From a virus (taxonomy: Duplodnaviria; Caudoviricetes), in the IMG/VR virus record IMGVR_UViG_3300024996_000015, positions 1 to 50,382 of that record: a stretch of DNA of 50,382 nucleotides, one strand, 5' to 3'. The position numbers and the translations under genes are program-made. Positions 8,149 to 43,641 of the stretch are shown piece after piece (the stretch's first letter is position 1; each line of letters begins with the position of its first letter). The notes beneath the pieces are model-generated. The model searched no databases. It saw only the letters and a program-made list of their open reading frames with translations, and was not told where the DNA came from.

Positions 8149-9359
8149 ACTATCTTTATCTTATTCGACAACTATTTATCTATAACAAGTATTTAAAATA
8201 CCGACACCACATTAAGATTGAGAAAGACCAGAAAGAGATCTATTATCTCTTCAAAGCTTTGGATCAACTCATGGAGAAGTTCCAAAAGGATATCTCCTTT
8301 GAAGACTATGCTCTATGGGTACAGGTTAATCTTGGTAATGACTACGCACAGTATATCCAACTGTTAAAGGAAACCAATACTGATGAAACGATTCTGGAAG
8401 CCTCGCTCAATGAGATCAAAACCAGATCTGTACTCTACGAACTCGCAAGTGCTGCGCTTGCCGGATCTGAGGGTAAGAAAACGGTGGAAGATATACTACA
8501 ACTTGTGGAGCAACTTACACAAGAAAAAGAACAGGCCAATAACGATCCGTTCGTTTCTACTTCTCTGAGTGAATTATATGACGACGCATACAAACATCAG
8601 GGTCTCCGCTGGAGACTTAGCAGTCTTAATCAGAGCCTTGGGAGCCTACGAGGAGGTGATTTTGGGTTTATCTTCGCAAGACCCGAAACCGGCAAAACTA
8701 CTTTCTTGGCGGACCAAAGCACGTATTTTACGGAACAACTTGATGATACAGATGGTCCGGGACTTTGGTTCAACAACGAAGAACAACACAAGAAAGTAAT
8801 GCTTCGCTGTATCCAAGCAGCACTTGGTGTTACCATGCAAGAGATTGCAAAAGATATCCGTGGTTACGAAGAACAATATAAACGTATAACTAAAGATAAA
8901 CTTAAACTTCCTAACTTTGATACCACTCACAAACGAGAAATGGAAGCATTATGTAAGGATGTAAAACCATCCTTCATTATCATTGACCAAGTATCCAAGG
9001 TACGCGGATTCAACAACGACAGAGAAGATCTACGACTAGGTGCAGCATTTGAATGGGCACGGGATCTAGCAAAAGAATTTGATTGCCCTGTAATTGGTGT
9101 CAATCAAGCAGATGGTAGTGGTGAAGGTAAGAAGTATCTTGATATGAGTAACGTAGCAAACAGTAAGACAGCAGTTCAAGCAGAAGCAGACTTTATTCTA
9201 GGTATTGGGAAATCAAATGACCAAGGATTTGAATTGATTAGACACTTTAATATCAGTAAAAATAAACTCGCCGGAGACGAATCATCTGACCCTAGTAAAC
9301 GACACGCCAAATGGGATGCTCTTATCCAACCAGATATTGCTAGATTTCGTGATTTGTAG
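8145..9359 (+). CDS. DnaB-like replicative helicase
   Basis: Walker A ARPETGKTTF, IIIDQ, VIGVNQA, AEADFILGIG, ISKNK. Confidence 0.92.
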   Translation: MNYLYLIRQLFIYNKYLKYRHHIKIEKDQKEIYYLFKALDQLMEKFQKDISFEDYALWVQVNLGNDYAQYIQLLKETNTDETILEASLNEIKTRSVLYELASAALAGSEGKKTVEDILQLVEQLTQEKEQANNDPFVSTSLSELYDDAYKHQGLRWRLSSLNQSLGSLRGGDFGFIFARPETGKTTFLADQSTYFTEQLDDTDGPGLWFNNEEQHKKVMLRCIQAALGVTMQEIAKDIRGYEEQYKRITKDKLKLPNFDTTHKREMEALCKDVKPSFIIIDQVSKVRGFNNDREDLRLGAAFEWARDLAKEFDCPVIGVNQADGSGEGKKYLDMSNVANSKTAVQAEADFILGIGKSNDQGFELIRHFNISKNKLAGDESSDPSKRHAKWDALIQPDIARFRDL

Positions 9360-9388
9360 TTGACATTTCAGGTTGAATACTATATAAT
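9360..9388 (+). promoter_or_regulatory. sigma70-type promoter in front of HNH cassette
   Basis: TTGACA-17 nt-TATAAT starting directly after helicase TAG; AAGGAGG SD follows. Confidence 0.8.
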
Positions 9389-9410
9389 GATTTCTTTTAA
9401 GGAGGTCATT

Positions 9411-9923
9411 ATGACAAAAAAGGAACGACAGGCAATCGCGGCAAAGAAATGGTATGAGAAAAACAAAGAAAAGATTTCTGCCCAAAGAAAAGGGAATAGA
9501 TCTGAAGAATATAAATCATATTATGAACGAAACAAAGAGTATTTTAATTTAAAGGCAAAAGAATGGCAAAAGAATAATCCAGAAAAGTGGAAAGAAATCC
9601 AAAGAAAATGTAAACAAGGAAATCCACAAAGATCTTTGTATAATAAAGCCAAAGGAAGATGTAAACAATCTGGATTAGAATTTACTATTACTAAAGAAGA
9701 TATAATTATACCAGAGTATTGTCCATTACTAAAAGTAAAACTAGATTCTTGGGGACACAAAGATTACTGTCCTTCTTTAGATCGTATTGATAATACAAAA
9801 GGATATACTAAAGAAAACATTTGGGTAATTTCCTTCTTAGCTAATCGAATGAAAAACAGTGCAACAAAGGAAGAACTTCTGCAATTCGCAGAATCTATTT
9901 TAACTTTACATAGGGATCTGTAA
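9411..9923 (+). mobile_element. free-standing HNH-type homing endonuclease fused to old helicase C-terminus
   Basis: IPEYCPLL, PSLDRIDNTKGYTKENIWVISFLANRMK; ends RDL* like the helicase. Confidence 0.85.
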
Positions 9924-10634
9924 ATCGCATACATTGATTATTACCAACTAGATAAGAATAATAAAGTAGTAAAAGAGCATACTACTAGAGCTTGCTTCTA
10001 TGAGATTACTCAAAATAATACAAATCTACATGAAGACTGCCAATATATTCTATTCGACTTTGGAAAGAAACAAACAGTCTCAAATGAAGAAGCACGGCAA
10101 TACTTTTTATTCCTTAAATCTATTCCAGAATTCAAAGAGCTTATGCCAAAGAACTGTAAAGTTATGGCAGAAACTGGTAACTTTAAGATTGATCTGCATA
10201 AGTTTAATGGAACTAAGATCTTCACCATGCTTACTCTTATTCGAGCAGTAGTGGAAGACCCAAAGATTGTACGTGCAGTACTACAGTTTGATCGTAAGTT
10301 TAAGTATAGTATCTCTAACTTCTCTATTCTTAAAATGTGTGGTTCTGTCTATCAATCAAACAGTAATCATTGGATTACTATGCAGGTAAACAAACATCAT
10401 CTAGACAAGATGTTTTATACAAAAGAGTACTGGAATAGTGATCTCCCTTGCATTGATACTGGTCTTGGTAAAAATATCTTTAATACCTTTACCTTTGCTG
10501 ATGAAGGATTTGCAGTAAAGAATCCAGTAAGAGAGACTGATATTAAAGCAGTACGAGAAGAGAAAAACAAACCAAAGAAAGCAGCAGTTAGACAGAAGAT
10601 GTACGATACTACTTACTTACAACTAGGATTCTAA
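9924..10634 (+). CDS. hypothetical protein (probable non-canonical ATC start)
   Basis: Frame is open from ATC 9924, 73 codons upstream of the first ATG (10143), with AGGGA upstream. Confidence 0.55.
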   Translation: MAYIDYYQLDKNNKVVKEHTTRACFYEITQNNTNLHEDCQYILFDFGKKQTVSNEEARQYFLFLKSIPEFKELMPKNCKVMAETGNFKIDLHKFNGTKIFTMLTLIRAVVEDPKIVRAVLQFDRKFKYSISNFSILKMCGSVYQSNSNHWITMQVNKHHLDKMFYTKEYWNSDLPCIDTGLGKNIFNTFTFADEGFAVKNPVRETDIKAVREEKNKPKKAAVRQKMYDTTYLQLGF

Positions 10635-10709
10635 TATGACTTTAACTGATTGGGGTTGGTTTATTGTAGGCTGTATTCTTGGTTATCTTTTAGTGAAAGG
10701 ATTTATGTA

Positions 10710-42194: not shown

Positions 42195-42196
42195 CT

Positions 42197-42517
42197 TTAG
42201 GCATCCTCTTCTGTAATTACTGCTAAAATATCTACATCATTTAAAATAAGGTACTTGATACCCTTATGTTCTATAGTCTTGCCTGCGTACTTCGCAAAAG
42301 AAACTAAATCTCCTTCTGAAAGAATAGAAGCATCTCTACCATAGTCTTTAAAACAGGTAGGACCAATTGAGATCACTGTGCCTAATTCAACGGCAGCCTG
42401 TTCACGCTTATCTAGTTCAATATGGATTCCAGCAGCTTTCGCTCTTTTAATAAGTTCATCTGCCTCTTCTACTTTACTAGGTAAAACTAATACTGTATGT
42501 AGCAATAATTTAATCAC
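42197..42517 (-). CDS. GroES-like co-chaperonin
   Basis: IK.L.HTVLV, GIHI, GTVISIGP, GDLVSFAKYAG, YLILNDVDILA. Confidence 0.85.
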   Translation of the reverse strand: MIKLLLHTVLVLPSKVEEADELIKRAKAAGIHIELDKREQAAVELGTVISIGPTCFKDYGRDASILSEGDLVSFAKYAGKTIEHKGIKYLILNDVDILAVITEEDA

Positions 42518-42947
42518 TTGATTCAAATTCCTCTAAGTATTTTACTGCATTTCTTAGCAGTATTACGTTATCTTTCATATGGCCTATGCCTATATTGCAA
42601 TGGTTACACAATAGACCTCTTACTCTACCTGTAGTATGGCAATGATCTACTCTTGCTACATCTAGTGACGCTGCTTTATTATTAGAATAAAGTTCTAAAT
42701 GTTTGCCACAAATAGCGCAAGATCCTTTTTGCTCTGAATATAGTTGCTCAAGCTGTTGTAAAGAAATTCCATAGTTTTGCTTTATACTGCGTTCTCTATT
42801 TTTTTCAGGATTTGCTTTATAATAAGCATCTCTAACAGCATTTAAACACTTCTTACAAGAGGCAGTAAAACCATCCTTAGTTCCTTTATTCTTTCTAAAG
42901 AGAGTTAGTTCTTTTGTCTCTTTACAAGAATAACAAACTTTAGTCAT
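42510..42947 (-). mobile_element. endonuclease VII-type HNH homing endonuclease
   Basis: CYSCKETK..F...CKKC, QKGSCAICG, VDHCHTTGRVRGLLCNHCNIGIG. Confidence 0.88.
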
Positions 42948-43153
42948 TCGTCAATGTCCTCAACTGTAATTTGCAGCATTTCTGCGTATGCCTTAATCAT
43001 GCCTCGTACATAGCTATCAAAGATTGGATCGAGACCAGCCTGCCCTGCTAGGGTGTTCTTGCCGTCTTCAATTCGCATTTCACACGCTTCAAAGACTGCT
43101 TGTGTAATTGGCTCTGATTTCCAGAGGTAGAAGTCATCTTTTGAAATACTCAT
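42944..43153 (-). CDS. conserved small head-module protein
   Basis: FYLWKSEPIT..., typical portal-adjacent ORF; GGAG SD. Confidence 0.65.
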   Translation of the reverse strand: MSISKDDFYLWKSEPITQAVFEACEMRIEDGKNTLAGQAGLDPIFDSYVRGMIKAYAEMLQITVEDIDE

Positions 43154-43641
43154 TATAATATCTCCATTATAAACTTGTTGCTCTTTCGGGCATTTTCACT
43201 TTTACTGAGTAATTGTAAATTATCCCAAACGTGTAATCCACATACATCTGGATGCTGTAAAGGAATAATATGATCTACTTCTAAACCAAAATATTGTGCC
43301 TCTTTATATACAGCTAATATATCACTTGTGTTAGCCCAAACAGGCTGTGCGCGCCGCACCTTTCTTCTTCTTAGTGAAAAGTAAGAGGCTAATTTAGGCT
43401 TATTTGCCTGTCTATATGAGTAACAAATCTTCTTGTACTGCTCTTGGTTATTCTCCAACCATTTCTTTTGAGAAAACCTAACTTTTTCTTTATTCGTTTT
43501 TGCCCATTGTTTTTTGTACTTAGAAATAGATTCTTTCAAGTCTATTGCTCTACATTTTGGACTACAGTATTGTTGATTAGGGCGAAACTTACTTAAAATA
43601 AAAGTTGTACAGCAGAATTTACATTTCTCCTGCTTGCTCAC
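43153..43641 (-). mobile_element. HNH homing endonuclease
   Basis: QPVWAN, EVDHIIPL..VCGLHVWDNLQLLSKSENARKSN; GTGA overlap with portal stop. Confidence 0.88.

Follow-up and report, generated by a model that had tools for sequence, protein, structure and literature searches.

Homing endonuclease genes just inside the ends of essential phage genes probably bring a spare gene end

How can a mobile endonuclease gene lie inside the coding sequence of an essential gene and still leave that gene whole? Homing endonuclease genes (HEGs) usually spare essential genes by residing in introns or inteins, or by taking an intergenic position. The question was raised by the IMG/VR virus record IMGVR_UViG_3300024996_000015, a Caudoviricetes genome of 50,382 bases with an estimated completeness of 98%, the whole of which is referred to here as the window. 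Several HEGs lie just inside the ends of its essential genes, and comparison with relatives makes it likely that they supply a spare end which keeps the gene whole. Each insert (446-548 nucleotides, nt) consists of a HEG and a diverged duplicate of one end of the gene, 6-18 codons long; judged by the segment that the insertion cuts off, it amounts to the last 9-12 codons or the first 7-18. The copy is in frame with the gene body, and the resident terminus is found as an orphan beyond the HEG, either untranslated or fused to it. The essential gene stays whole because the copied end is joined in frame to its body. These HEGs are free-standing and lie inside coding sequence, without an intron or intein. 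In HEG-less relatives and in metagenome contigs, gene body and orphan terminus were contiguous at four loci, the C-ends of the tail adaptor and of a scaffold-like gene, and the N-ends of DNA polymerase and ribonucleotide reductase (RNR). A preliminary description of this DNA had named five terminus loci, and all five of its motif pairs were found where it had placed them. The same four loci were borne out, and they passed its proposed test, in which empty alleles should continue into the orphan and not into the current terminus. The fifth, the helicase C-end, involves 3-4 residues and stayed ambiguous.

The tail adaptor gene lies on the minus strand (33626-34342), and its last 11 codons and stop (33626-33662) form the replacement end. 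It is followed on the same strand by an Endonuclease_7-type HEG (33210-33626, within an open reading frame (ORF) of 33210-33656), the ATG of which overlaps the adaptor stop. The stop of this HEG falls on the first bases of the orphaned adaptor C-end (33175-33212, minus strand), which abuts the start of the next gene. The current end (33626-33661) and the orphan (33176-33211) are identical at 9/12 positions, stop included, and at 25/36 nt. For comparison, 68 IMG/VR relatives were collected, and their adaptor C-ends were read in 56. At HEG-less loci, the adaptor stop was no more than ~10 nt away from the start of the next gene, and in some the two overlapped. The eight closest loci had native ends of the current type (L004, L006, L007, L010), of the orphan type (L008, L009, L011) or of a third variant (L005). 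Because positions 3681-3718 of L009 align to both 33662-33625 and 33212-33175, the adaptor insert is delimited as 33213-33662 (450 nt). As for a foreign origin of the inserted end, both adaptor types are native in relatives, and the segments are too short for a tree.

A homologue of the adaptor HEG was detected in 8/68 loci, and in two of them, L035 and L050, it stands directly after the adaptor (58% identity). These two loci have the same new end as each other, at the same adaptor site as the window HEG. The orphan of L035 (10 residues and stop, the first residue apart) is the native end of L042, and that of L050 resembles the native ends of L040 and L057. Against L042, L035 has 514 extra nt, inserted 32-35 nt ahead of the stop, and the flanks are 93% and 89% identical. 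The same HEG and new end with differing, lineage-like orphans are the strongest indication that new end and HEG move jointly while the resident end stays behind. An alternative is that each duplication is the one-off scar of an illegitimate insertion, the new end being a co-converted flank which does not move with the HEG. One-sided, illegitimate double-strand-break repair is indeed documented for T4 intron homing in the review PMC2988022, and nested duplications in a further relative, L202, suggest messy events. However, the pairing seen in L035 and L050, and the fact that the window's HEG, a member of the same family, is equally far from the adaptor stop, make a series of one-off scars unlikely.

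The scaffold-like gene (41364-42194, minus strand) had no family match, and its name is the label of the preliminary description. Its replacement C-end is at 41364-41394. The Endonuclease_7-type HEG behind it (40915-41361, minus strand) contains the orphaned scaffold C-end in frame as its last 34 nt (40915-40948), and with this orphan the native stop and the original junction with the following gene are preserved. Current end (41373-41390) and orphan (40927-40944) share 5/6 residues and 12/18 nt. When 23 C-ends of the family were read, their conserved C-terminal pattern was also recognized at the tail of the window's HEG ORF. In the closest relative, L072, positions 10-846 align to 42241-41395 and positions 847-1323 to 40948-40476. 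Since its neighboring positions 846 and 847 align to either side, the empty allele is contiguous across a 446-nt insert (40949-41394). The L072 terminus goes with the orphan, at 78% identity.

At the two remaining loci, both on the plus strand, it is the N-end that is duplicated. The first piece of the family A DNA polymerase (11861-12997) starts with a replacement N-end (11861-11881). Upstream of it, the orphaned native N-end (11287-11309) comprises seven codons and part of the eighth, and runs into a stop. The 548-nt insert (11307-11854) has a promoter (11319-11348), a phrog_3322-type HEG ORF (11373-11864) and the start of the replacement N-end. Orphan (11287-11307) and current end agree in 7/7 residues but in only 16/21 nt, with five synonymous codon changes. 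The relative L221, 94% identical in the second polymerase piece, has no HEG at this place. Its positions 1-981 align to 10322-11306 and its positions 954-2096 to 11855-12995, and because the shared 28 nt (954-981) align to both N-end copies, the second at 11855-11882, the insert is bounded at 11307 and 11854. Contigs from the metagenomes X6 (depth 366) and X7 (depth 35) connect position 11306 or 11309 with 11895 or 11903, and the 14 or 19 letters in between carry on the polymerase frame. At its eighth codon, the orphan is in accord with these empty alleles and also with the relative L001.

The RNR N-end was organized differently. Here the orphaned native N-end (19087-19140) has 18 codons, with its own start codon, and is fused in frame to the HEG body, a GIY-YIG plus helix-turn-helix protein (19141-19566). 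A 71-amino-acid N-terminal RNR fragment follows (19556-19771), with the replacement N-end at its start (19556-19600). The motif pair reported in the preliminary description is present, its first motif (19120-19140) lying inside ORF 19087-19566. In the stretch beside the junction, the copies are identical in 4/8 residues. Among 36 N-ends read, those of the closest relatives correspond to codons 1-18 of ORF 19087-19566, and relatives of the GIY-YIG HEG family start ~3-20 residues ahead of the first GIY-YIG motif; the HEG is therefore regarded as fused to the native RNR start. A contig from X6 joins 19136 to 19610 with 13 nt between, which, as read by eye, continue the RNR frame. In L169, positions 2830-2864 and 2872-2965 match the two sides of the insert, 7 nt apart. 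The same gene is interrupted a second time by an HNH_3 HEG (19740-20165, plus strand), which divides RNR into the 71-amino-acid ORF and one of 591 amino acids, the main piece (20159-21934, plus strand; class II type by family scan). This is a split, not a terminus replacement. The two ORFs of the split gene were contiguous in 80/80 relatives, and either RNR HEG was found in 0/80, RNR being in one piece there. Contigs from X5 and X6 skip 19649-20231.

An occupied and an empty allele could also be compared within very close relatives outside the window. L201 (empty) and L202 and L203 (occupied) have flanks that are 99.7-99.97% identical, and the HEG belongs to the phrog_3322-type family. In L202, 32 nt are replaced by 610 nt, made up of an orphaned helicase N-end, the HEG and a diverged new N-end. 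The orphan consists of 15 codons and is protein-identical to L201.

Do these flanking copies really belong to the HEGs? They could instead be ordinary intergenic HEGs, with flank similarity that is due to chance or to low complexity at gene boundaries. A flank-similarity score was calculated in the window for all genes, and the adaptor HEG ranked first (62) and the polymerase HEG fourth (35). The scores of the scaffold (24), helicase (26) and RNR (27) HEGs were within the non-HEG background, so that the window alone proves two loci and the others need the relatives. These scores favor the intergenic explanation, as do four window HEGs without an orphan and a fifth that is inconclusive, and they weigh against terminus replacement together with several other points. 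A HEG is present at the scaffold spot in 1/48 relatives (L094), without a clear orphan. Together with the orphan-less HEGs of the window, L094 indicates that terminus replacement is one option and not a rule. X5 and X6 belong to one study, and X1, a further metagenome, is probably the source sample. Finally, all of the evidence is comparative, and it is from such comparisons that we infer the cut sites, the immunity of occupied alleles and the repair route. On the other side, relatives are contiguous across body and orphan at four loci, and contigs join the orphan to the gene, which makes chance similarity around intergenic HEGs very unlikely.

Enrichment of the duplications beside HEGs argues in the same direction. 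Flank duplications were scored in 202 related loci, after removal of the window's own two pieces, with ORFs of at least 100 amino acids, 105 nt of flank and identical proteins counted once. A flank score of at least 40 was reached by 7/17 distinct HEG ORFs vs 8/1081 other ORFs (Fisher p 3e-10), a contrast that may be flattered by shadow ORFs among the controls, which may lower the control rate. The two top-scoring controls were tandem paralogues. Further N-end cases affect the zinc-ribbon gene homologous to window 35478-35810, as seen in L037 (36 codons), L016 and L040. Further C-end cases were seen in L106 and, at the polymerase, in L001.

The window is a metagenome-derived record of modest depth (16.6 in X1) and the related populations are very diverse, so two strain variants of a gene end might have been stitched around a HEG during assembly. 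Yet the compact in-frame architecture recurs across contigs and samples (L001, L035, L050, L037, L016, L040, L106, L202 and L203), and a single X1 contig covers a whole 14.4-kb stretch with 2 differences. We thus consider an assembly artefact highly improbable. Contigs omit rare variants; the depth of the X5, X6 and X7 contigs drops 10- to 400-fold in HEG bins.

Splicing would be another way to keep the genes intact, if the inserts were degenerate introns or inteins. According to published abstracts, HEGs in essential phage genes are often borne by introns or inteins. In the window, however, stop codons close the host reading frames ahead of the HEGs, and the HEG ORFs almost fill the inserts. 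At the gathering score, Rfam returned only two tRNAs and no intron family, and around the cassettes no intron family appeared even at E values up to 1, in agreement with the earlier argument that the inserts could not accommodate an intron. There was likewise no sign of an intein, although no search was aimed at intein motifs. Removal of the inserts by splicing is therefore an extremely remote explanation.

The helicase C-end remains ambiguous as a candidate terminus replacement. Right after the helicase stop, a 12/12 sigma-70-like promoter (9360-9388) and a phrog_3322-type HEG with a likely ATG at 9411 occupy 9360-9923 (plus strand). The candidate pair agrees at 4/5 positions and 9/15 nt, the presumed orphan being the last 4 codons of the HEG (9909-9923). 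In L001, the helicase stop is directly followed by the next gene, and in the window the presumed orphan's stop abuts the homologue of that gene. Three observations speak against an orphan here: the HEG end is as long as that of its L202 paralogue, L201 aligns to the current helicase end through the stop, and a minor X5 contig (depth 16; junction 9362/9898) has the current helicase end together with the last 26 nt of the HEG. At the DNA level, alignment to neither L001 nor L201 settled the helicase end.

Some side observations concern the same region. The X5 contig with the 9362/9898 junction is without the promoter and most of the helicase HEG. It seems to derive from an occupied allele by deletion, as a cycle in which HEGs are gained and lost would predict. 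Behind the helicase HEG, the frame of the next gene is open from 9924 and corresponds to the N-end of the homologue in L001, with ATC in place of the L001 ATG. Within 9924-10142 there is no ATG, GTG or TTG, the first being at 10143. The start of this gene has either been lost or is non-canonical, which may be collateral damage of HEG insertion. In L202, the C-end of the gene upstream of the helicase cassette is new as well, and a diverged version of the former end comes after it without an intervening HEG (3891-3960), which may be the footprint of an earlier cassette.

Which nucleases are involved? Family scans of the window ORFs gave ten clear HEG-like ORFs, totaling ~5.3 kb or one tenth of the genome, as summed by hand from the coordinates. 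Three are paralogous phrog_3322-type ORFs (6522-7103, 9360-9923 and 11373-11864; phrog_3322 match with E 1e-32) and three are of the Endonuclease_7 type (at the adaptor, at the scaffold and at 42510-42947; Pfam Endonuclease_7 with E 1e-20 to 1e-22). One each is of the HNH type (43153-43641), the HNH_3 type (the RNR-splitting ORF; Pfam HNH_3 with E 8e-17) and the SegE-type GIY-YIG (16224-17120; SegE_GIY-YIG with E 5e-30). The tenth is ORF 19087-19566, for which Pfam alone gave a sub-threshold match (E 0.003-0.004). It was recognized as GIY-YIG by a profile of 46 relatives, which matches solved GIY-YIG proteins with E 1.2e-6. A phmmer search of this ORF against solved structures gave no match, a word-index homologue search returned only the ORF itself, and its single-sequence structure model was unusable (mean predicted local distance difference test, pLDDT, of 43.6).

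Both the Endonuclease_7-type and the phrog_3322-type HEGs also match phrog_1035 (endonuclease VII) and HNH-annotated PHROG families. From these matches, we read them as one superfamily of the His-Me/HNH type. The cassettes had earlier been assigned to three unrelated nuclease families, which overstated their diversity, since there are two superfamilies and the phrog_1035 and HNH matches are shared. Three of the four confirmed cassettes carry His-Me nucleases, and among the HEGs at termini only that of the RNR N-end is GIY-YIG. The window HEGs thus have the HNH/His-Me or GIY-YIG domains of free-standing phage HEGs, and close relatives differ in whether they have one at the locus concerned.

How would such a cassette move? 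The cut of the HEG in the empty allele would fall on, or close to, the inner edge of the future orphan, a place ~31-35 nt before the stop for both Endonuclease_7-type HEGs. After the cut, the recipient's own terminus would remain on one end. The other end would invade the donor's gene body, and synthesis would copy the new end and the HEG up to the donor's orphan, where the ends would meet. The founding allele may have arisen when repair was homologous on one side and joined illegitimately on the other, as in the T4 repair mentioned above. Immunity of the occupied allele would come from the divergence of the new end and from the truncation of the orphan at the cut site. Recoding of the end may destroy the HEG's own cut site and may also limit loop-out; the longest exact runs common to the copy pairs are 5-13 nt.

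The HEGs also appear to be expressed parasitically, in three ways as judged from their layout: by a start that overlaps the host gene's stop (adaptor), by use of the host start codon (RNR) and by a promoter of their own (polymerase, helicase and primase HEGs). On the plus strand of 6000-22500, three of the four best sigma-70-like promoter sites were located directly before the three phrog_3322-type HEGs, with matches of 12/12, 12/12 and 11/12, the polymerase one being near-consensus. The fourth site, at 13769 (11/12), precedes ORF 13863-14495, which is not a HEG. In an alignment of the three window phrog_3322-type cassettes and that of L202, similarity starts at the -35 box. The Endonuclease_7-type HEGs have no such promoter and start at or beside the stop of the host gene.

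Comparable elements have been described in fungal mitochondria. In these mobile ORFs (mORFs), an inserted C-terminal part is followed by a mobile endonuclease ORF, with the native C-terminal part downstream, and the text of PMC3630166 gives as cases atp6, atp9, cox2 and nad3 of Glomus, atp6 of Allomyces macrogynus, atp9 of Rhizopus and cox2 of Mortierella. Some of these are in phase with the gene, and their mobility is stated there to have been shown biochemically. The phage cassettes share with them an inserted C-terminal part in phase, which in the fungal cases is described as foreign, an endonuclease ORF and a displaced native end that matches ORF-less relatives. In the window, the terminus copy is inside the insert and in phase with the body, and the native terminus is beyond the HEG and like that of ORF-less relatives at adaptor, scaffold, polymerase and RNR. 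Further likenesses are an ORF that is sometimes in phase with the native end and more than one nuclease family. Unlike the mORFs of PMC3630166, the phage cassettes have a phage host and His-Me and small GIY-YIG plus helix-turn-helix nucleases instead of LAGLIDADG. Their duplications are much shorter (6-18 codons in the window and up to 36 in a relative), and N-ends are replaced as well, in one case with the HEG taking the gene's start codon. The marks of descent from fungal mORFs, a mitochondrial host with LAGLIDADG or GIY-YIG nucleases, are not those of the phage elements. The phage cassettes work like fungal mORFs but are not members of them by descent.

Among phages, the nearest comparison is with the seg and mob HEGs of T4 and their "intronless homing". 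According to the review PMC2988022, these HEGs resemble those of the window in being intronless and sporadic, in the overlap of start and stop with the upstream gene and in the co-conversion of flanks. They differ in lying between genes or splitting them, and the stem "duplicat" is absent from the main text of the review. The genes in pieces described there and in related sources, Aeh1 nrdA with mobE and T4 genes 39/60 with mobA, resemble the HNH_3 HEG that splits RNR. Unlike in these, the host protein is whole at the four terminus loci, and the part that was cut off is resupplied. The F-CphI family, as presented in PMC6083498, comprises free-standing phage HEGs with an Endo VII catalytic motif, and the window likewise has free-standing HEGs with a Pfam Endonuclease_7 domain. 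No description of terminus duplication in phages was found in a limited search of the open-access literature. As far as searched, the phage host, the His-Me and GIY-YIG nucleases and the replacement of N-ends as well as C-ends are new here.

Terminus replacement would add, with support from comparative data, a third route by which phage HEGs spare essential genes, in which the element brings a spare gene end. Loci of this kind will be misinterpreted by gene callers and pangenome software, which will report short orphan ORFs, HEG fusions or seemingly truncated genes. The orphan would offer a prediction of the HEG cut site from sequence only, by which many uncharacterized nucleases become testable. 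Imported ends would amount to small, HEG-driven allele swaps in structural and replication proteins, and thus to an added route to phage mosaicism. The parallel with the fungal mitochondrial elements points to convergence on one solution.

A second peculiarity of the polymerase is found at its motif A. The second polymerase piece has a GTG start at 13207 behind a strong ribosome-binding site, and after 10 codons it meets an in-frame TAG (13237-13239). Six extra bases are present here (13237-13242) in comparison with L001, L205, L221 and the X7 contigs. The insertion falls precisely between the Leu codon of motif A and its Glu codon, and the TAG has a Leu codon on either side. L201-L203 have 2 extra bases at the same place (L201 9170-9215), with a mismatched triplet in L201. 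Motif A was then surveyed in 75 of 80 metagenome loci, five with a late-starting match being omitted and peptides being read by eye. It was in frame in 71/75 and interrupted between the Leu and Glu codons in 3/75; L236 has a 1-nt loss elsewhere. The interrupted loci are L240 with 7 extra nt (~2940-2990), L234 with 2 extra nt (~2930-2960) and L226, which is unclear. In L240, identical Leu codons flank TAG plus 1 nt, and in L234, too, the Glu codon is preceded by a triplet for Leu. A phrog_3322-type HEG is located directly upstream of the motif A piece in L240.

These insertions are possibly immunity scars that are decoded by short hops or shifts. An active polymerase would be made only if the ribosome re-paired its Leu tRNA on the matching triplet just before the Glu codon. 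The insertions of 2, 6 and 7 nt, in at least 4 lineages (window, L240, L234 and L201-L203), would then be natural stop-hops and +2 shifts. They would protect against a nuclease that cuts the DNA of motif A, as a miniature of T4 gene 60/mobA. Programmed bypassing of the T4 gene 60 type is marked by matched take-off and landing codons around the gap and by a stop immediately behind the take-off codon. The 2016 review PMC5009743 states that the gap of T4 gene 60 may protect against the neighboring HEG, and that matched-codon stop-hops were shown only in synthetic constructs, with no natural in-frame case known to it. No suppressor tRNA for the TAG was found, the two tRNAs of the window being Arg (tct) and Thr (tgt). 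The rivals to decoding are that these are broken genes or very recent mutations. Downstream of the insertions, the frames are open for 208-214 codons, and the ratio of nonsynonymous to synonymous substitution rates (dN/dS) relative to the nearest uninterrupted relatives is 0.06-0.12, a sign of purifying selection. If hopping were true, these would be natural examples of a recoding otherwise known, per PMC5009743, from synthetic constructs. Taken together with the cassettes, an arms race with HEGs may have given two splicing-free routes, a clade-general terminus replacement at both ends, with the orphan length marking the cut, and hop-site immunity scars in motif A. We put this combined picture forward only tentatively, and regard it as rather doubtful.

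Every relative examined has its family A polymerase split immediately ahead of motif A. The gap between the pieces (window 12998-13206) holds nothing in L001 (5138-5219), ORFs of unknown kind in the window and L201 (8461-9170), a phrog_3322-type HEG in L240 (2400-2935) and an Endonuclease_7-type HEG in L264 (2400-2925). It looks like an old insertion hot spot. L221 has a tandem duplication of the 3' end of polA, the spacer and the 5' start of polB (2097-2956), and window positions 12624-12995 and 13241-13332 each align twice in it. This could be either a real segmental duplication at the polymerase split or an assembly of two strain variants.

The window HEGs that lack a clear orphan are of several types. 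A phrog_3322-type HEG (6522-7103, plus strand), with a 12/12 promoter at 6473-6500, is upstream of the primase gene; no orphan was seen there, nor at the SegE-type GIY-YIG HEG (16224-17120, plus strand). The HNH-type HEG after the portal gene (43153-43641, minus strand) has no orphan in coding frames. A flank match at this HEG with a score of 44 was rejected, since the frames involved are non-coding and the DNA similarity is weak. Also rejected was an out-of-frame 8-residue repeat around ORF 15946-16224. The less clear case, an Endonuclease_7-type HEG (42510-42947, minus strand), is between a 69-amino-acid gene and a GroES-like gene. Its tail is acidic and takes the place that the end of the 69-amino-acid gene has in relatives; the tail is too short and of too low complexity to call. 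In relatives of the portal-to-scaffold stretch, neither HEG of that stretch was found at its locus.

The genome as a whole has a podophage-like gene set, with an SU10-type adaptor, a P22-like portal, a terminase, a DnaB-like helicase, the two-piece family A DNA polymerase and the class II-type RNR. A near-identity DNA search of 8000-22400 and 30000-47200 against cultured phages gave no match. The best cultured relatives are ~40% identical in protein and too distant for judging termini. Genes in 1332-6459 matched PHROG families of glutamine amidotransferase, COOH-NH2 ligase, amidoligase, aminotransferase-like and RimK-like S6 glutaminyl transferase proteins, and this run may be a modification pathway. 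The two tRNA genes are located at 157-231 (Arg, anticodon tct) and 48281-48356 (Thr, anticodon tgt).

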